A stretch of DNA of 64,000 bases, taken from NCBI GenBank assembly GCA_041666545.1, contig JBAYGS010000005.1, positions 18,842 through 82,841 on the forward strand, read 5' to 3'. Shown one piece after another: positions 3,833 through 57,639 of the stretch (the stretch's first letter is position 1; each line of letters begins with the position of its first letter). The notes under the pieces were generated by a model. The model saw nothing but the letters and a program-made list of their open reading frames with translations, was not told the origin of the DNA and made no database searches. The position numbers were made by a program, and so were the translations under genes. Origin of the DNA: Minisyncoccota bacterium (GTDB lineage Bacteria; Patescibacteriota; Minisyncoccia; Phycocordibacterales; JBAYGS01).

Positions 3833-4420
3833 ATGACTGCCGAAAAACTGCTTGAGACAATCGAAATCTATCAGAATTTTTTTGTCGAGTCGGGTTTCAA
3901 AAAGGCCGGGCAACTGCACGACGAGCTCCCGGCCTTCCCACAGGTGAGGACGGCGGAGGCGCCATTTAGAGAGGAAGGAGCGATTCCTGAAGAACTACTT
4001 GAGGCAATCGAAACCTACCGGAAATTCTTCGTCGAATCAGGCTTCAAGAAAACTGAACACCTGCACGACGAACTTCTAACCAGCGACCAGTCCGGGTTCG
4101 AACACTGCCACGGAATGCTGGACCGAATGGTCAAGTTTGTTCAAGAAGGGCGGTTGGAAAAAGCTTTTCGCTGGCTCGGCTTTATCCAAGGTTTCCTCTG
4201 GTCAAGGCGAGTTTTCGCCCTAGCCGAACACAATGACAAGGCCGGATTTGAGCACTGCCACGGCATGCTGGACCCAATGGTTAGATTCGTTCATGAAGGA
4301 AGGTTGGAAAAAACTTTCCGTTGGCTTGGCTTTATCCAGGGTTTCCTCTGGGCCCATCGGATCTACACCTTGGCCGAAATCAAAGACCATAATCGGTCCA
4401 AAGGTCTGCTTGACCCTTAG
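3833..4420 (+). CDS. Hypothetical protein built from two pairs of internal tandem repeats (FFVESGFKK...LHDEL x2; GFEHCHGMLDxMVxFVxEGRLEKxFRWLGFIQGFLW x2)
   Basis: Direct tandem duplication is visible at both the protein and DNA level (3840-3920 vs 3990-4070; 4085-4230 vs 4235-4385). The gene starts 13 nt after the glnB stop. Confidence 0.5.
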   Translation: MTAEKLLETIEIYQNFFVESGFKKAGQLHDELPAFPQVRTAEAPFREEGAIPEELLEAIETYRKFFVESGFKKTEHLHDELLTSDQSGFEHCHGMLDRMVKFVQEGRLEKAFRWLGFIQGFLWSRRVFALAEHNDKAGFEHCHGMLDPMVRFVHEGRLEKTFRWLGFIQGFLWAHRIYTLAEIKDHNRSKGLLDP

Positions 4421-5892: not shown

Positions 5893-5936
5893 TTTTCCCC
5901 ACTACCCACTACTTACTACTAACTACTAACTAATTC

Positions 5937-9933: not shown

Positions 9934-9970
9934 AGTATATAGTATTAGGTATATGGTATATGGTATGGAG
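9934..9970. repeat. GGTATA-rich repeat (AGTATATAGTATTAGGTATATGGTATATGGTATGG)
   Basis: Near-identical copies in inverse orientation at 11733-11775 and 20858-20896. Degenerate relatives at 22292-22325, 26463-26500, 37838-37880, 54366-54392 and 54505-54530. Confidence 0.6.
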
Positions 9971-10378: not shown

Positions 10379-10985
10379 ACTCCAAGATTCCCTCCAAATT
10401 AGCATCGTAAAGAATCTGCTCTTGAACCAATTTGTAGTCAATAAGCTCATCTTTTTTAAACCAGTGCATGATTTCATTTTCCGCTTCCTTAACCGAGCCG
10501 GCCGAGTGGACCAAATTGCGGACCGCCCGAACATCATCATCGGACATTTTGTAAGAATCTAAAACAAAATCCCCCCGAATCGTTCCAACATCGGAGGTCA
10601 AAGGTTCGGTCCCGCCGGTAATCTTGCGCACAATTGCAACCGCATGAGCCCCTTGCCAGACCATCGCAATCACCGGGCCGGAAGAAAGATATTTTTTGAG
10701 CTTGGCTAAAATCATCTCCGTCACTTTGAAAGGATTGCCCTCGAAAGGGTGCTTCATCCCCTTGTCCTGGTAGGCTTTAATATTTTTCTCGCCGGTAAGT
10801 CTTCGCCACTCCGGATCAAGAGTATAATGTTTCTCGACAAACTCCGGACTAACCGTCATCATTTTTAGGGCTACCATCTTAAGCCCGGACCTTTCATAAC
10901 GTTTAATAATCTCGCCGATTAGAGTCCGCTGAATACCATCCGGCTTGATAACCACTAGAGTTCTTTCGTTTTTGGGATGAGGCAT
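10377..10985 (-). CDS. ndk: Nucleoside diphosphate kinase, long form (about 200 aa)
   Basis: ERTLVVIKPDGIQRTLIGEIIKRYERSGLKMVALKMM is the canonical NDK N-terminus. Confidence 0.85.
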   Translation of the reverse strand: MPHPKNERTLVVIKPDGIQRTLIGEIIKRYERSGLKMVALKMMTVSPEFVEKHYTLDPEWRRLTGEKNIKAYQDKGMKHPFEGNPFKVTEMILAKLKKYLSSGPVIAMVWQGAHAVAIVRKITGGTEPLTSDVGTIRGDFVLDSYKMSDDDVRAVRNLVHSAGSVKEAENEIMHWFKKDELIDYKLVQEQILYDANLEGILE

Positions 10986-11122
10986 AAGTTAGTGAGTAGT
11001 TAGTAGTAAGTAGTCAGTAGAAACGACATGAAGACATTCTAGCTCAAAATCTACCTCAGGACGAGGGATTGACATCTGATACCTAGTATGTTAGGGTGAC
11101 CAAAGAGAAAGGATAGAATACT

Positions 11123-16820: not shown

Positions 16821-17017
16821 GAATTAGTTTGTAGTTAGCAGTGGGTAGTGAGTAGTTAATGGAGACATAATAACAAGAAACTGGAGACTTAAATAGGACT
16901 TGACTTTTTGCCGATATTATGATACACTCAAAGGCAGTAAAGTCCTTTAGCATTTTAGTGCACAGAAACTCAACAACCTACCCGCCAAGCGGGTTACAGA
17001 AATCGGAGGAAATCAAT

Positions 17018-17825: not shown

Positions 17826-17878
17826 AGCAGTACCGCCGAAGTCCCAAAGGGACTTCGGCGGTTTTTCTCTATCTCAAA

Positions 17879-17960
17879 CTACCCACTACTCACTACTCAC
17901 TACAAATCCCGATGTCAGAAGTCGGGACCCCGACCTTTGTCTGACAAAGCGTCGGGGCTT
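17879..17960. repeat. Composite repeat: an ACTAC-rich leader repeat (CTACCCACTACTCACTACTCACTAC) plus a GC-rich nested palindrome element (CCCGAtgtcaga-aGTCGGGACCCCGAC-c-tttgtctgacaaaGCGTCGGGG)
   Basis: The GC-palindrome family also occurs at 27033-27090, 52843-52885 (inside recJ) and 55350-55400. Confidence 0.6.
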
Positions 17961-20839: not shown

Positions 20840-20896
20840 TGAATTTTATCTTTGGCTTTCATACCTTATACCATATACCTAATACTATATACCCCT

Positions 20897-23846: not shown

Positions 23847-23908
23847 ATTGGTTAGTTAGTAGTGAGTAGTTGGTAGTTTGTAGTTTGTAGTTGAAGAAAA
23901 GAAAATAC

Positions 23909-25992: not shown

Positions 25993-26334
25993 CTATTTCT
26001 TAGCTTCGGTTGAAGCTTTAGCAGCCTGCGCAGAGGCAATCTCGGCTTGCTTCTTGGCAGCCTCGAGTTCCTTCTGCATCTTACCGCCGTGCTTAACGAA
26101 CTTGCGGGTTAAAGAAAATTCGCCCAATCGATGGCCAACCATGTCTTCAGAAATCAAAACTTCAATAAAATCCTTGCCATTATGAACGGCAAACTTAAAA
26201 CCAACCATTTCTGGAGAAATCTGGCAGGCCCGAGACCAAGTCTTAATTGGTTCAGACTTTTCAGGACGCTTGCCTGCTATCTTCTTTAGCAGCCTTTCGT
26301 CGACATATGGTCCTTTCTTAAGCGATCGTGTCAT
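25993..26334 (-). CDS. rpsS: 30S ribosomal protein S19 with a Lys/Ala-rich C-terminal extension
   Basis: [19 protein letters not shown]... is canonical S19. Confidence 0.9.
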
Positions 26335-26516
26335 AGGTTAGTTGGTAGTGAGTAGTTTGTAGTTATCAGAGACAACACCAAAACTACGCCCTTTATGTAA
26401 AAAGCTCCAAACGAGCTAGACGGATAGCTTAGCATAAGTCATTTTAAAGAGCAACTCTGGGCTGGTATAGGTATAAAGTATAAGTATAGGCTCAAAATAA
26501 GGGAGTTTTCACGCAC

Positions 26517-26550
26517 TTGACAATCTGACATATTGTATGATAAAATACTA
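26517..26550 (+). promoter_or_regulatory. Sigma70-like promoter (TTGACA ... TATGATAAAAT) for the inserted gene 26597..26968
   Basis: A TTGACA hexamer at 26517 is followed by an extended TG-N-TATGAT/ATAAAAT -10 region. A strong SD, AGGAGA, lies 4 nt before the ATG. Confidence 0.45.
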
Positions 26551-26596
26551 ATAGAGTTGGAATTTGGCAACAAACAAAAAACGAATAGGAGACAAC

Positions 26597-26968
26597 ATGA
26601 ACAATGTACACATCGCCCCCGGAAGCGTCGGCGCATCGGTTGGTTTTCGAGCCGGCCTGGCAACAGAAATGGCCGCGAAGATCCTGCAGCAGGACGCGCG
26701 AGACAAGCCTATCAAGGAATACCTTTTGAATACCGCCCCACCTTCAGTTCGCGAATGGATTCACGAAAATGGGGTGATTGATGATCTTTTCCATTATGGT
26801 TTCTCCAGCCGTCAGATGCGATTTGGTGAACCTTTGAACGACTCGGCGCATGTCTTGGGGGTCTGCGCCCAACTGGCAAAGGCCTGGAAAGGCCTGGTCC
26901 GGGTCACGGTGAGCAGCAACCCTGAACCACACCGTGTGGAAATCTTCTTCAGCGCCACACGACTTTAG
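26597..26968 (+). CDS. Hypothetical protein (123 aa) encoded on the opposite strand between rpsS and rplB; GC-rich relative to its surroundings
   Basis: ATG at 26597 has a canonical SD, unlike the neighbouring r-protein genes. It has its own promoter and the terminator GGCCCGCGACAGCAGTCGCGGGCCTTTTTATTT at about 26985-27020. Confidence 0.5.
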   Translation: MNNVHIAPGSVGASVGFRAGLATEMAAKILQQDARDKPIKEYLLNTAPPSVREWIHENGVIDDLFHYGFSSRQMRFGEPLNDSAHVLGVCAQLAKAWKGLVRVTVSSNPEPHRVEIFFSATRL

Positions 26969-27032
26969 GCAGGTGGCGTAGCAAACGGACAGGCCCGCGA
27001 CAGCAGTCGCGGGCCTTTTTATTTCTTCTAAG

Positions 27033-27090
27033 TAAGCCCCGACGCCTTGGTCGGGACCCCGGCCTCGTCCGACGAGCGTCGGGGCTAATG
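27033..27090. repeat. GC-rich nested-palindrome repeat AGCCCCGACGCcttGGTCGGGACCCCGgCCtcgtccgacgaGCGTCGGGGCT
   Basis: Same family as 17905-17960, 52843-52885 and 55350-55400. Confidence 0.6.
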
Positions 27091-27114
27091 AAGCTATCCG
27101 GCTAATCAAGCTAA

Positions 27115-27972
27115 CTAAGACAACTTTTGATTTCGATTCTTCCCCACTTTTCTTCGAGAAACAATGAAAACGTTTGAATACTTCTTTGGAGTTCGGGTCT
27201 TTTGGCCCTTGCCTGACGGCTTGCCCCATCTAGTCTTGGCGCGTCTTAGACCTCGGCCTTGCCTACCTTCACCACCACCGTATGGGTGGTCTACCGGGTT
27301 TTGAGCCGAACCTCGAACAGTCGGTCGAATGCCCAACCAGCGAGATCGTCCCGCCTTACCAATATTCACCAACCAATTTTCATCATTGGAAACAGAACCG
27401 ATTGACGCCCAGGCCTGATCAGAGACCTTTCGGACTTCAGTCGACGGCATCTTAAGGTGAGCTGAACCGGCGTCATGAGCAATCACTTCAGCAAAAATTC
27501 CGGCACTGCGAGCAATTTTACCTCCGCCCCTAGCCTTGAGCTCAACATTGTAAACAAAGGTACCAACTGGGATGTTCTTCAAAGGCAAACGGTTGCCAAG
27601 CTTGATTTCAGCTTTTTCAGAAACGATGAAGGTACTGCCGACTTTCAAATCTTTTGGAGCCAAGATGTAGCGCTTCTCACCGTCAGCATAGACAACGAGG
27701 GCGATGAAACCGGTTCGGTTTGGGTCGTATTCAACGGTCAAAACCTTGGCCGGAATATCGTATTTTTCGTATAGAAAATCCACATCTCGAAGCAGACGCT
27801 TGTGTCCACCACCCTTATGACGAGTGGTAATTCGGCCACGGTTGTTTCGGCCAACCGATCGGAAACTTCCCGAGGTCAAACCTTTATGCGGCTCCGAACT
27901 GGTAATGAACTTTCGATATTCAATCGAAGTCATGTGTCGGCGCGATTTGCTTGTAGGTTTGTAAGTTTTCAT
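27115..27972 (-). CDS. rplB: 50S ribosomal protein L2
   Basis: 285 aa, canonical. Confidence 0.9.
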   Translation of the reverse strand: MKTYKPTSKSRRHMTSIEYRKFITSSEPHKGLTSGSFRSVGRNNRGRITTRHKGGGHKRLLRDVDFLYEKYDIPAKVLTVEYDPNRTGFIALVVYADGEKRYILAPKDLKVGSTFIVSEKAEIKLGNRLPLKNIPVGTFVYNVELKARGGGKIARSAGIFAEVIAHDAGSAHLKMPSTEVRKVSDQAWASIGSVSNDENWLVNIGKAGRSRWLGIRPTVRGSAQNPVDHPYGGGEGRQGRGLRRAKTRWGKPSGKGQKTRTPKKYSNVFIVSRRKVGKNRNQKLS

Positions 27973-28054
27973 GGTTAGTTTTAAGTTTAAAAGTTTGGAA
28001 GTTTGGAAGTCTTAACTCTTAACTTCTGAACTTCAGAACTAAAGCGAAGCGTTA
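27973..28054. repeat. TTAGTTTTAAGTTTAAAAGTTTGGAAGTTTGGAAGTCTTAACTCTTAACTTCTGAACTTCAGAACTAAAGCGAAGCG repeat filling the rplW-rplB gap
   Basis: It abuts the rplB start codon and shares GTCTTAACT...AACTnAAGCGnAGCG with the ssrA upstream copy. Confidence 0.55.
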
Positions 28055-29261: not shown

Positions 29262-29386
29262 TAAATCAAAATTAAAATCTCAAAATTTAAAATGACAATG
29301 TAAAAGTCAAAATTGGATTCGGAAAAGTTTTAAATTTTAAATTATAATTTTTCATTTTGAGATTTACATTTTCCATTTAGTTGGAA
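29262..29386. repeat. AT-rich roughly 125-bp repeat between rplC and rplD, homologous to 21870-21987 and ending in the same 30-mer
   Basis: AATTTTTCATTTTGAGATTTACATTTTCCA at 29349-29378. The minus-sense strand contains a TTATAAT box. Confidence 0.6.
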
Positions 29387-35503: not shown

Positions 35504-35611
35504 TTTTAAATGATACCACGCTACCAGAAAGCCAAAAACCGCCTCTCGGCGGCTTTTGGCTTTCTGGATTGTGCGCTTGAATCTTGAATCTAAATTCTTG
35601 AATCATTCGAC

Positions 35612-51720: not shown

Positions 51721-53535
51721 CTATATTATGTCAACAATCCGCAGACGCAGTTCTGGGTACTGCTTGAAAACACTTTTTTCCATTGTCGCCACCAAGTTGA
51801 CCGCCTCACCAATTTCAACCTTAGTTTTAAACTCTTTGGGATTCATAAAAAATCCAATGGCAGAAACTTTATCACCATTTTCTTTTTTAAAAACCAATTC
51901 TAAGTGATTTTTCTCCTTGCCAAATTGTTTTAAATCAAAAATCTTAGCCGATTCAAAAAGAAAAACCGGTTTGGGATTACCAACACCGAACGGCGAGAGC
52001 TTGTCCACCAAATCCCAATTGGACCAATTTACACCATCAAAACTTAGTCTGGCATCAACGAAGACAGTCTGATCCAGAGCCTTGCGATTAGCTCGAGCCT
52101 GATCAAAAGCCTTTTCCAACTCTGTCTCTAAAAGGTGAATCTTTTCTGCTACGACACTGAAACCGCCAGAAAAATCGTGACCGCCATATTCCAAGAATAT
52201 GCCCGGGGCAACTTCTGACATCAGGCCAACTAAACTGGTGACTCCATCTGAACGACAAGATCCTTTGATGACATTTTCGCCATCTCTCCCCCAAAGAAAA
52301 ACAGGGCAAGAATGCTCTTCTGCCAAAGTATTGGCCGCGAGACCCAAAAGTGAAGGGCGCCAGTTTGGATTACCTAAAACAATTACTTTTTTATCTCGAT
52401 TAGCATAGCGCTCTGCGACGGCGTGCTTCATCTCTTTGACCATCGAAGCCACGATTCCTTTCCTCTCGTCATTAATCTTATTCAAATGATCGCTTACTTG
52501 GTCAGCCTCAACCTCATCCGTTGTGGCAAAAAGCCTGAAAGCGTCCATCGGCTCACCCATTCTTGAAGCGGCATTGATTCTGGGAGTAATCATAAAGCCG
52601 ATATCATCCTCGTTTAACGTTCTTTGATTGATTTTCAGCTTTCGCAATAATTTCATTAAGCCGACTCGGGGAGATTTTCTTAAAACTTTCATCCCGTAGT
52701 GAGCGAGCGCTCGATTTTCGCCCACAAGTGGCACCATGTCAGAAAGCGTGGCCAAGCCGGCCATGTCGAGCAACCATTTTTCCCATCCCTTTGGGACGGG
52801 AGAAATGGTTGCTTGATTCAAGTCACAAGTTTCAAGCCCCGACGCTTGCCGCAAGGTCGGGGTCCCGACCGGAGCGTCGGGATTTGGAAGTTTAGAAGTT
52901 TGAAGACGAAAGATCAGAGCCTGCACCAATTTAAACGCCACACCCGCACCACAGAGACTCTTGTTGGGATAATCACAGCCCGGCTGATTTGGGTTAACAA
53001 TAGCAAAAGCCTCTGGCGCGCCGTGACCATTAACTAAGTGATGATCGGTGACAATCACATCTAGACCGTTAGCTTGAGCAAAATTAATTTCGGAAATATT
53101 GGCGATGCCACAATCAACCGTAATTAAAAGTCTGGCCCCCGACTCAACAAATTGTTTGATCGCATTTTCATTCAACCCAAAACCCTCATTGTGCCGATGC
53201 GGAATATAGTTTTCAAAATTAGTGAAACCGATTTTCCGGAAAAAATCATGCAGGATCACTCCGCCTGGAATCCCGTCGGCATCATAGTCACCAAAAATTA
53301 TTATCTTTTCACCCAATTGGAAAGCCTTCAGAATTCGGTCCACCGCCTTCCCCATATCTTTTATCAAGAACGGATCGTGGAGATGCTTCTCATAATTAGG
53401 ATTGAGAAAGGCTTCGGCCTGATCGCCGCCCTTGATCTCCCTATAGGCTAACAACTTCTTAAGCAAAGACGGATATTGGCCGAGCTGTTGGTGTTCCTGA
53501 TCTGAAATTTCCTCCCGGACGGCATATTTTTTCAT
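51721..53535 (-). CDS. recJ: Single-stranded-DNA-specific exonuclease RecJ, carrying an in-frame insertion derived from an intergenic repeat
   Basis: The DHH motif is VIVTDHH, with DHHA1 and a C-terminal OB region. The repeat insertion encodes ...KLPNPDAPVGTPTLRQASGLE... between the VAFKLVQAL and LLDMAGLATLSDMVPL blocks. Confidence 0.85.
   Translation of the reverse strand: MKKYAVREEISDQEHQQLGQYPSLLKKLLAYREIKGGDQAEAFLNPNYEKHLHDPFLIKDMGKAVDRILKAFQLGEKIIIFGDYDADGIPGGVILHDFFRKIGFTNFENYIPHRHNEGFGLNENAIKQFVESGARLLITVDCGIANISEINFAQANGLDVIVTDHHLVNGHGAPEAFAIVNPNQPGCDYPNKSLCGAGVAFKLVQALIFRLQTSKLPNPDAPVGTPTLRQASGLETCDLNQATISPVPKGWEKWLLDMAGLATLSDMVPLVGENRALAHYGMKVLRKSPRVGLMKLLRKLKINQRTLNEDDIGFMITPRINAASRMGEPMDAFRLFATTDEVEADQVSDHLNKINDERKGIVASMVKEMKHAVAERYANRDKKVIVLGNPNWRPSLLGLAANTLAEEHSCPVFLWGRDGENVIKGSCRSDGVTSLVGLMSEVAPGIFLEYGGHDFSGGFSVVAEKIHLLETELEKAFDQARANRKALDQTVFVDARLSFDGVNWSNWDLVDKLSPFGVGNPKPVFLFESAKIFDLKQFGKEKNHLELVFKKENGDKVSAIGFFMNPKEFKTKVEIGEAVNLVATMEKSVFKQYPELRLRIVDII
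52843..52907. repeat. GC-palindrome plus TTGGAAGTTT repeat (CAAGCCCCGACGCTTGCCGCAAGGTCGGGGTCCCGACCGGAGCGTCGGGATTTGGAAGTTTAGAAGTTTGAAGACG) lying inside the recJ coding sequence, in frame
   Basis: Same composite element as the intergenic copies at 17905-17960, 27033-27090 and 55341-55423. The spurious ORF 55285..55518 translates the 55341 copy to LNPDASVGTPTLKQASGLS, matching the recJ insert KLPNPDAPVGTPTLRQASGLE. Confidence 0.7.
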
Positions 53536-54947: not shown

Positions 54948-55292
54948 TCAGACCGGTGGCCGACCGTCATCGACGTGCGAAATGTCGTCGAAGGCCTCGC
55001 TTGGGAGATTGGTCGGCATCGGCGTCAGGACCTTGGCCTCGGCCTCAGTAGCCTTGACTGAAGCGTCATGCCGAGCCCGACAAGCTACCAGATGTTCGGA
55101 GACAAAAAGAGTCTTAATCCGCCGACCACAGGTTGGGCAAGGATGGCAGCAGGCCGTAAAATGCATGGCGTTTCCTCTCGGCTGATGACAGATGCAATGA
55201 CACTCATGAGGATCAGCCCAAACAGAATCAACCCGAATTCCCAAATCTGACATACTTATCCTTTCTTTAGAGGATGAACTGACTGTGTTCAA
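54948..55292 (-). CDS. Hypothetical Cys/His-rich small protein, GC-rich
   Basis: CHCICH...CCHPCPTCGRR...HLVACRARH clusters. The start may be the internal Met (MSDLGIRV). Confidence 0.3.
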   Translation of the reverse strand: MNTVSSSSKERISMSDLGIRVDSVWADPHECHCICHQPRGNAMHFTACCHPCPTCGRRIKTLFVSEHLVACRARHDASVKATEAEAKVLTPMPTNLPSEAFDDISHVDDGRPPV

Positions 55293-55340
55293 AATAGCAC
55301 AATCTCACCACGACGTCAACAGGGGCCACTGCCACCTTTT

Positions 55341-55423
55341 TAAACTTCTCAATCCCGACGCTTCGGTCGGGACCCCGACCTTGAAGCAAGCGTCGGGGCT
55401 TTCAAACTTCCAAACTATTCTCA
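55341..55423. repeat. Composite repeat (AAACTTCTC - AATCCCGACGCttcGGTCGGGACCCCGACCttgaagcaaGCGTCGGGGCT - TTCAAACTTCCAAACT) whose 3' portion encodes the last residues and stop codon of pgk
   Basis: The pgk C-terminus ...LENSLEV* is read from GAGAATAGTTTGGAAGTTTGA, which is the revcomp of 55402-55422. The plus-strand ORF 55285..55518 is the repeat translated. Confidence 0.65.
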
Positions 55424-57302: not shown

Positions 57303-57639
57303 TTATCAATTATAGCAGAACCTGAAACTTGGAGCATGAAACTTGAAACAGTAAAACAAAAAAGGACCCAGTAAAGGGTCCTGAAAGAAAAGGAGGATAT
57401 TGCTCACCCGAAGGTGATCGGCGCGAGCACAAAGTGCTTTGGCGCTATAAGAACGATTTTTTAGGCAATATCCGCCGGTCTAAGGTTATGGTTGCCTTCA
57501 GTGGGCAGCCTACTCGCCAATCAGATTTCCGCGGATTGACACACGGCGGACTAAAATCCGAAGGCCTTGGCTGCTCCACTTACAATTTTACTCCCAAAAA
57601 CAAAAAAGACAAGTGCTTAAAACGGGTCGGAAGAGAGAT

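Follow-up and report, generated by a model that had tools for sequence, protein, structure and literature searches.

Within a 64-kb stretch of a Minisyncoccota genome (contig JBAYGS010000005.1 of assembly GCA_041666545.1; the whole stretch, 84% of which is coding, is hereafter the window), the gene recJ carries inside its reading frame a copy of a short palindromic repeat that otherwise lies between genes. This insert is most probably a doublet copy resembling the repetitive extragenic palindromes (REPs) and their hairpin-forming doublets (REPINs), tolerated as a selfish insertion in a permissive loop, and not a new functional module. The window RecJ, for which 7,999 homologues were found (Pfam DHH, DHHA1, and RecJ_OB among them), matches the solved RecJ structures 8y30, 5f54, and 2zxo (via HMMER) and is on record as NCBI MFA6536652.1, from a Candidatus Paceibacterota metagenome-assembled genome (MAG). 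Because the identical insert-bearing protein is recorded from two MAG assemblies, an assembly artefact is unlikely.

On the sense strand of recJ, which is also the canonical strand of the element, the GC-rich core reads CCCGACGCTCCGGTCGGG-AC-CCCGACCTTGCGGCAAGCGTCGGG and codes for residues P219-G233 (PDAPVGTPTLRQASG) within the continuous translation ...SKLPNPDAPVGTPTLRQASGLETCD...; the deduced tryptic peptide of the region is LPNPDAPVGTPTLR. Together with AAACTT-type flanks on either side, the core forms a composite of 71–72 nt that spans the 25 codons T213-C237, equal to the 25-residue excess over the nearest orthologue. An initial annotation had placed the insert at 52843–52907; the left edge falls about 5 nt late, and a right-hand tail is included beyond the core (52838–52881).

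In protein alignments, the closest RecJ (P0001, 81% identical) lacks exactly 25 residues at the insert, the next (P0002, 76% identical) lacks 23, and the insert peptide is absent from all other Parcubacteria RecJ sequences. In the DNA alignment of recJ with the orthologous locus L001, the insert stands opposite a 75-nt gap (66 + 9 nt) with conserved sequence on both sides. The orthologue alignment proposed as a check in the initial annotation thus returned gaps at the expected position, and an insert is confirmed, although the earlier size of about 22 residues was too small. L001 and L002 are syntenic with the window (pgk, a small ORF [open reading frame], HIT, an ORF, recJ, and rnhA), and no copy of the element was found in the DNA recovered from them (4.5 and 21.8 kb), the 3' end of pgk included. 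Nor was a doublet found in 80 further recJ loci (0.5 Mb) of the Candidate Phyla Radiation (CPR), and when metagenomes were scanned for close relatives of this RecJ, no locus above 58% identity came back and none had the element. The linker that received the insert is hypervariable, and in L001 and L002 it is built of 7–8-nt periodic sequence. Alignment with syntenic orthologues that are free of the element shows a lineage-specific insertion, and the pairing of filled and empty recJ sites in syntenic relatives provides a dated, clean example of the process.

Further copies of the palindrome lie elsewhere in the window. The 44-nt recJ core recurs with 3 mismatches at 55354–55397, where 0 such matches are expected from shuffled sequences, and the half-motif CCCGAC..GGTCGGG occurs 6 times in the window against 0.03 expected; these matches are not chance. 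The doublet centre GTCGGGRYCCCGRC marks four loci (17921, 27050, 52856, and 55366), three of them intergenic, which bears out the earlier description of a dispersed, otherwise intergenic palindromic repeat. All three intergenic copies lie close behind stop codons (2–29 nt), namely those of secY, rplB, and pgk. The recJ insert (52827–52897) and the pgk copy (55338–55409) are identical in 64 of 72 columns (89%), with AAACTT-type flanks on both sides, and among the other window copies such flanks occur only in that of pgk. The nucleotide match to an intergenic copy, previously judged by eye, therefore holds; the composite, said to recur at three other sites, is present at pgk only, and the 22-nt tail TTGGAAGTTTAGAAGTTTGAAG attributed to it is unique in the window as written. 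The right flank of the pgk copy provides the pgk stop codon (55402–55404) together with the last codons, and the pgk product (C-terminus at window positions 55402–55416) ends in ...ENSLEV inside the element flank, compared with ...RIN in the relative L002.

The consequences for the RecJ protein appear to be slight. All columns invariant across 87 RecJ sequences are kept in the window RecJ, with the DxD, D, DHH, D, and GGH residues present as D83/D85/D87, D141, D164-H165-H166, D266, and G451-G452-H453. AlphaFold2, given that alignment, modelled the protein with an overall predicted local distance difference test score (pLDDT) of 90.8 and a predicted template modelling score of 0.88; confidence collapses at the insert only, with 10-residue block means of 70, 51, 44, and 75 over residues 211–250. 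In the model, the insert is placed between helices 196–213 and 251–265, and the HMMER alignment breaks there, query residues 210–258 standing opposite residues 212–220 of 8y30. The solved RecJ structures have about 7–10 residues at this point, in agreement with the earlier remark that RecJ proteins are short in this loop. The insert probably gives rise to a disordered loop on the protein surface, about 25 residues long and rich in Pro, Gly, Thr, and Ala, which does not touch the catalytic motifs, and on its conserved residues the insert-bearing RecJ looks functional; the claim of an intact frame stands, the 604-aa ORF being uninterrupted.

At the RNA level, the segment of recJ mRNA folds to -31.5 kcal/mol (z = -4.0) in two competing shapes, either tandem hairpins or one long nested hairpin, with an outer 8-bp and an inner 7-bp pairing as alternatives to the two tandem hairpins. 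When the neighbourhood of the insert was scanned for terminators and promoters, nothing resembling a terminator turned up, and an internal terminator of recJ was rejected on that ground. We infer that the insert is translated straight through in vivo.

The recJ copy belongs to a family that extends well beyond this genome. A scan of genome_contigs (one genome per species) returned at least 120 loci, and the statistics given here rest on 113 sampled doublets. Among the matches listed, the hosts are overwhelmingly Patescibacteria—that is, Saccharibacteria, Kaiser-, Nomura-, Adler-, Wolfe-, Zambryski-, Lipton-, Uhr-, Woese-, and Shapirobacteria, Paceibacterota, and Minisyncoccia—with several Omnitrophota and a few other MAGs. 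Matches in high-GC actinomycetes are without the second hairpin and were set aside as chance. Each unit of about 18–24 nt has the form CCCGAC-C..loop..G-C-GTCGGG, the left half of the doublet being the reverse complement of the right, with AC joining them, and each contains CGTC (..GCGTCGGG). The basal stems are nearly invariant over the 113 doublets, also across distant Patescibacteria classes, while the loops vary (3–7 nt or with extended stems) and total length ranges from 37 to 77 nt. Arm interiors are diverse (158 distinct among 226), yet they form 3.97 extra base pairs compared with 1.55 in shuffled sequences, and the hairpins are by this measure maintained. Since the flanks are asymmetric and conserved (T at -1 in 96%, G at +1 in 96%, C or T at +2 in 90%, and T at +3 in 81% of copies), the element is oriented despite its palindromicity. 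Flanking direct repeats of at least 8 nt accompany 7.1% of copies and 0.7% of controls; they vary from 6 to at least 14 nt and are often displaced, with no target duplication of fixed length, and in one LigA gene a perfect 14-nt duplication brackets T-core-G.

Several candidate identities for the element were discarded. Rfam was searched with gathering thresholds across the full window and with E <= 10 near the site; these searches returned only transfer-messenger RNA (tmRNA) and noise, and a described RNA family or self-splicing intron was rejected on this result and on the strong preservation of reading frame. A phage-borne element was likewise rejected, a scan of viral_contigs having given only 2 matches. 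The locus L015 was considered as an autonomous element, but its two inverted copies, 2.1 kb apart, merely flank tuf-rpsJ-rplC. The G:T wobbles, both of which lie on the canonical strand, might have marked that strand as a functional RNA, but this idea was dropped because the three intergenic window copies are antisense to the genes upstream.

In-frame insertion is a general behaviour of the family. In 19 of the 113 doublets, one and the same frame runs open for 100 aa or more to either side, and only 3 are split-like and out of frame (binomial p = 4e-7 against the one-third expected if frame were irrelevant). Because of this 19-to-3 ratio, we take the intragenic doublets to be translated and not spliced. 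Core lengths of 1 mod 3 are found in 27/34 intragenic copies compared with 36/79 others (p = 9e-4), which fits an inserted unit T-core-G. The conserved skeleton permits no stop codon in any of the six frames, and all six frames and both orientations are used, giving unrelated peptides. The hosts identified through NCBIfam are CarB, RecG, PolA, LigA (two genomes, two sites), UvrB, MetK, PheT, PolX, a GlcD-like oxidase, YifB/ComM, YchF, SerS, EF-G (two genomes), GyrB (two genomes), an amidohydrolase, a DnaQ-like exonuclease, GlyRS, DnaX, fructose-bisphosphate aldolase, RNase HII (two genomes), and ribosomal protein S3. In EF-G, the element occupies the identical column in two genomes (L100:4149–4192 and L039:5044–5081) whose EF-G proteins are 89% identical and differ there by a 2-codon indel; intragenic copies therefore persist through speciation under frame constraint. 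The GyrB copies (L007:369–423 and L013:1008–1061; proteins 71% identical) lie in the same C-terminal loop in opposite orientation, and the RNase HII copies (L032:2817–2853 and L075:7344–7380) in the same loop in different frames; as read from their sequences, both cases are independent insertions into permissive loops.

Some individual loci of the family show features of their own. L100 is labelled Nomurabacteria and L039 Saccharibacteria, and at 89% EF-G identity one of the two taxonomic labels is doubtful. In L015 (6650–6694), ribosomal protein L3 (rplC) ends in ...SPDASVGVPTKASGK inside the doublet, 3 nt before rplD. In L042 (1034–2872, minus strand), a GT4 glycosyltransferase and a type IV pilin/GspG-like N-terminus (..SGFTLIELLVV..) share a single open frame, and the doublet lies precisely where the two meet; this represents either a gene fusion made by the element or a pilin leader peptide that now contains the doublet.

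A second recurrent context is the tRNA gene. At no fewer than 9 loci in Patescibacteria and 5 in Omnitrophota or other genomes, always in the same orientation, the doublet sits inside a duplicated 5' fragment (first 17–25 nt) of a tRNA, 20–45 nt upstream of the same intact tRNA, inserted after GTAG^ or CTCAG^ of the D-arm (e.g., GCTTGGGTAGCTCAG-[C core A]-TTGGTTAGAG-filler-GCTTGGGTAGCTCAGTTGGTTAGAGC... in L093; Table 1). About 11 of 60 scanned loci have the element less than 100 nt from a tRNA, compared with 1–2% that we roughly estimate for positions taken at random. A tRNA present in partial copy is normally a scar (attL/attR) left by a large integrative element (PMC9897764); here, in contrast, the 'island' is shorter than 100 nt. 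The pattern suggests that insertion is oriented and sequence-specific (..AG^), and that it either is linked with a local duplication or survives only alongside one.

Table 1. Positions of recJ, its insert, and the related copies (unprefixed coordinates refer to the window; others to the named locus).
Feature	Coordinates	Strand	Remarks
recJ	51721..53535	-	intact 604-aa ORF, host of the insert; DHH/DHHA1/RecJ_OB, single-stranded-DNA-specific exonuclease
Composite inserted unit in recJ, ~72 nt	52827..52897	-	AAACTT-type flank + core + AAACTT-type flank; codons T213-C237
Core plus family-wide conserved flanking bases in recJ	52835..52882	-	T before, GCT after (canonical orientation); 48 nt = 16 codons
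Palindromic doublet core in recJ	52838..52881	-	44 nt, GC-rich, sequence CCCGACGCTTGCCGCAAGGTCGGGGTCCCGACCGGAGCGTCGGG
Sister composite copy at pgk 3' end	55338..55409, core 55354-55397	+	4 nt past pgk stop; Pfam PGK
Copy after secY	17908..17956	+	~7 nt downstream of secY stop; (ACTACTC)3.7 precedes
Copy after rplB	27038..27083	+	~30 nt downstream of rplB stop, past terminator of opposite-strand ORF; then (GCTAATCAA)3.6
tRNA-linked loci	L093:5616-5810, L083:1700-1900, L059:3640-3830, L027:6440-6620, L065:280-480		
tRNA-linked loci	L017:6640-6830, L006:7790-7980, L037:4650-4945, L012:50-260		
tRNA-linked loci	L005:2180-2450, L063:4170-4400, L078:1920-2345, L051:5400-5665, L103:6960-7200		

Among described systems, REPs and their arrangements as bacterial interspersed mosaic elements (BIMEs) and REPINs provide the closest parallel. 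Di Nocera et al. (2013) divided the REPs of 8 phyla between two super-families, GTAG-tagged and CGTC-tagged, found them mostly within 20 nt of ORF 3' ends, and reported that more than half of the intragenic inserts are dimers coding for 20–30 residues, notably in replication and repair genes (PMC3733652). The Patescibacteria element likewise consists of short GC-rich imperfect palindromes in inverted doublets, placed a few nucleotides after the stop codons of convergent or co-directional genes, with variable loops, conserved stem bases, and G:T pairs in the stems, and it occasionally forms in-frame intragenic dimers of the same 20–30 aa, again with replication and repair genes prominent among the hosts. 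Repair genes that carry REP dimers in frame are already known from other phyla (PMC3733652), and Rickettsia palindromic elements were described earlier still; the recJ phenomenon as such is not new. The element differs in being without a GTAG tag of its own (its flanks are T...GCT, and GTAG appears only where a neighbouring tRNA fragment supplies it), in its conservation over whole Patescibacteria classes and Omnitrophota rather than within one genus, and in its tie to duplicated tRNA 5' fragments. With the CGTC-tagged super-family, which seems to have no dedicated transposase and whose CGTC-1 to -4 families include RPE-4 and RPE-6 of the Rickettsia palindromic elements (RPEs), themselves ending in CGTC (PMC3733652), it shares a CGTC in each unit, the lack of an evident dedicated transposase, and intragenic copies in uvrB, ligase, polymerase, and aminoacyl-tRNA synthetase genes. 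Published CGTC REPs, however, have an unpaired CGTC head, an 8–9-bp stem starting with A/T pairs, a 4–5-nt loop, and a CCA tail (PMC3733652), whereas here the GTC of CGTC is paired in a 6-bp CCCGAC/GTCGGG stem with no A/T pairs, followed by a GCT tail. The element thus behaves like published REPs yet belongs to none of the published families, and no description of REP-like elements in CPR/Patescibacteria was found in the literature searched.

Other mobile or repeated sequences share fewer traits. With the insertion sequences IS200/IS605, which transpose as single strands, and with their non-autonomous derivatives, the palindrome-associated transposable elements, the element has in common hairpin-defined ends, strictly oriented insertion after ..AG (GTAG^, CTCAG^), and no fixed-length target duplication; it departs from IS200/IS605 in that some copies carry 8–14-nt direct repeats or 17–25-nt duplications, of which peel-and-paste transposition makes none, and in that TnpA was not detected within 4 kb on either side of the 113 copies (a weak test), nor was TnpB found. 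RPE-1 of Rickettsia, described by Ogata, Claverie, and colleagues, is about 100–150 nt long and restricted to Rickettsia. The RPEs resemble the present family as selfish palindromic DNA that lies in frame in housekeeping proteins of a reduced genome and is translated, in surface loops, but a length of 37–77 nt and a spread over phylum-level lineages set the element apart by size and host taxon. DNA uptake sequences (DUS) of Neisseria and uptake signal sequences (USS) of Pasteurellaceae are 10–12-mers that occur about once per kb and arise by substitution; they too often form inverted pairs after genes and are biased to genome-maintenance genes, whereas the element is a rare insertion of 45–75 nt that is absent from close relatives. 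Compared with a classical MITE (a miniature transposable element, derived from DDE transposons, with terminal inverted repeats and a target-site duplication of fixed length), it is palindromic throughout and its flanking repeats vary in length. The earlier term 'MITE-derived' is accordingly loose for what has the anatomy of a REP doublet (REPIN/BIME-like), with no fixed target-site duplication and no transposase found.

A coherent account of the recJ insert can be assembled from these comparisons. A REP/REPIN-like family occurs scattered over this Paceibacterota genome and has a patchy distribution among Patescibacteria. After the split from relatives whose RecJ proteins are 76–81% identical, one such unit, about 72 nt long (the 44-nt core with AAACTT-type flanks, as at the 3' end of pgk), inserted into the DHH domain of RecJ, in a hypervariable linker that joins two helices, and by chance kept the frame; the insert would since be transcribed within recJ mRNA and translated through. 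The element most plausibly spreads, by analogy, through a hairpin- or single-stranded-DNA (ssDNA)-directed process such as that of REPs and their RAYT transposases or of IS200/IS605, as suggested by its oriented conserved flanks (after ..AG), the conservation of its hairpins, and the absence of a fixed-length target duplication. Of the two possibilities raised in the initial annotation, tolerance of the insert is favoured, given its occurrence in one lineage, its pLDDT of 44–51, and the presence of the family in six frames and both orientations of unrelated proteins; domestication or exaptation finds no support in the single-lineage distribution, the predicted disorder, or the six-frame behaviour of the family.

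Several points weigh against an account of tolerated insertion. The insert is known from one lineage only, and selection on the peptide is hence not measurable; its suggested neutrality derives from low pLDDT and from the behaviour of the family, and is an inference only. At 44 nt, the recJ core is 2 mod 3, unlike most intragenic copies, and the frame depends on the flanks, while the linker is too divergent for base-exact insertion boundaries. No transposase or mobilising gene is identified near the copies: tblastn over about 1 Mb (4 kb on either side of the 113 copies) with queries for IS200 TnpA, IS608 TnpA, and the RAYT of E. coli, a weak test, gave nothing below E = 0.047, and the word 'mobile' rests on distribution. 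Finally, 14 of the 27 identified hosts, RecJ counted, act on DNA (p = 6e-8 with a baseline of 10%, or 0.002 with one of 25%, chosen to take account of gene length), an enrichment that simple tolerance leaves unexplained and that could point to a DNA-level role.

A broader proposition is possible, if rather doubtful: the family may represent an undescribed, horizontally spreading palindrome, shared almost base-for-base by distant Patescibacteria classes and Omnitrophota, that moves without a recognisable transposase by an oriented hairpin/ssDNA route to ..AG^, leaves tRNA 5'-fragment duplications and variable direct repeats as its signature, and survives in or targets replication and repair genes, EF-G, GyrB, and ribosomal proteins.

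Among the alternatives to tolerated insertion, a function of the DNA itself is the least unlikely, although we consider it improbable. The palindrome would then be an uptake or recombination signal (DUS/USS-like) or a gyrase or nucleoid-protein site (as for E. coli REP/BIME), with its presence in maintenance genes selected or biased and the peptide a by-product. Neisseria DUS are also biased toward genome-maintenance genes. The near-invariance of the stems between distant Patescibacteria classes, together with the variable loops, would suit such a role, as would the dependence of CPR bacteria on competence machinery (ComEC lies near recJ in L002) and the predominance of DNA-acting hosts (14/27), which mirrors the REP bias (PMC3733652). 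Uptake signals saturate a genome, however, and this element does not: it is sparse and unevenly spread, with 4 copies in the 64 kb of the window and no doublet either in the closest relatives or in 0.5 Mb of further CPR DNA, it arrives as an insertion of about 45–75 nt and not by point mutation, and the host enrichment weakens to p = 0.002 with the long-gene baseline.

Exaptation, in which the inserted loop has been domesticated and serves RecJ (e.g., as a new interaction surface or in regulation of the exonuclease), is still less likely. The frame is intact and the gene looks functional, EF-G copies persist through speciation with in-frame indels only, and insertions recur in the same GyrB and RNase HII loops; permissive loops, however, explain the recurrent sites equally, and the recJ insert is confined to one lineage and predicted to be disordered, translation of the family, in all six frames and in either orientation, yields unrelated peptides, and the sister copy at pgk is non-coding apart from the stop codon.

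It is very improbable that the hairpin is an intron-like or hop-like element, cut out of the mRNA or bypassed during translation and thereby absent from the protein. The stability of the mRNA structure (-31.5 kcal/mol), the abundance of introns in Patescibacteria (PMC13011429), and the interruption of tRNA-like sequences by the doublet in other genomes would be compatible with such removal, but frame preservation (19 vs 3; 27/34 of length 1 mod 3) would then be needless, the interrupted tRNA copies are 5' fragments beside an intact gene and not split genes, and there is no Rfam match; the papers on Patescibacteria tRNA introns concern group I introns and not the palindromic doublet (PMC13011429). 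Just as improbable is the absence of any insertion, through loss of an ancestral long linker in the relatives or an assembly chimera, for although the linker is hypervariable and 7–8-nt periodic in relatives, its ancestry does not explain 89% nucleotide identity to an intergenic copy 2.5 kb away, all other RecJ proteins are without the insert, and the identical protein occurs in two assemblies with the ORF uninterrupted.

For recJ alone, a tolerated loop insertion of the type documented for REPs and Rickettsia RPEs is of little consequence. More broadly, CPR genomes of less than 1 Mb are still colonised by selfish palindromes, and essential proteins (RecJ, EF-G, GyrB, LigA, UvrB, and S3) absorb them as disordered loops. 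Such inserts inflate the apparent 'lineage-specific insertions' in CPR proteins, break alignments to hidden Markov models, and can provide stop codons and C-termini (pgk here and rplC in L015). Current REP/RAYT models leave unexplained the cross-phylum conservation, the bias toward DNA-metabolism genes, and the tRNA 5'-fragment signature. If the family does prove to be an undescribed spreading element, it would contribute significantly to variation in protein length, and perhaps to mutator phenotypes, in the most reduced bacterial genomes.

Tandem repeats of 7–8 nt (ACTACTA, TTGGTAG, ATACCAT, and AACTTCCA) fill most spacers of the window, the ribosomal-protein operon included, and 17 of the 22 arrays are fully intergenic despite 84% coding density; examples lie at 1898–1944, 5898–5932, 9935–9966, 10985–11020, 16831–16856, 17878–17903, and 20861–20893, and further arrays at 23848–23893, 26339–26365, 27951–28040, 29263–29378, 35576–35604, and 57319–57349. 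Short-period repeats beside the element are slightly enriched family-wide (0.395 vs 0.371), and tandem repeats were dropped as a specific companion of the element, since with arrays in most spacers their adjacency is largely a by-product of location.

The surroundings of two window copies also contain further features. The genes rplB (27115–27972) and rpsS (25993–26334), normally adjacent, are about 780 nt apart, and the gap (26335–27114) holds an opposite-strand ORF of 134 aa (26564–26968) without a Pfam match, a strong terminator hairpin at about 26983–27015, and one doublet. Between HIT and pgk lies a Cys/His-rich ORF of 114 aa (54948–55292, minus strand; ..CHCICHQPRGNAMHFTACCHPCPTCGRR..), also without a Pfam match, and L002 has an ORF of comparable length at this position. 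Elsewhere in the window, Rfam identifies a tmRNA at 1476–1859 on the minus strand (118.9 bits), while ARAGORN finds neither tmRNA nor tRNA in the 64 kb. A 195-aa ORF without an assigned family (3833–4420, plus strand) contains an internal tandem duplication of 150 nt (50 aa) with 78% identity (repeat at 4085–4378), and its duplicated motif reads ...FEHCHGMLD.MV.FV.EGRLEK.FRWLGFIQGFLW...

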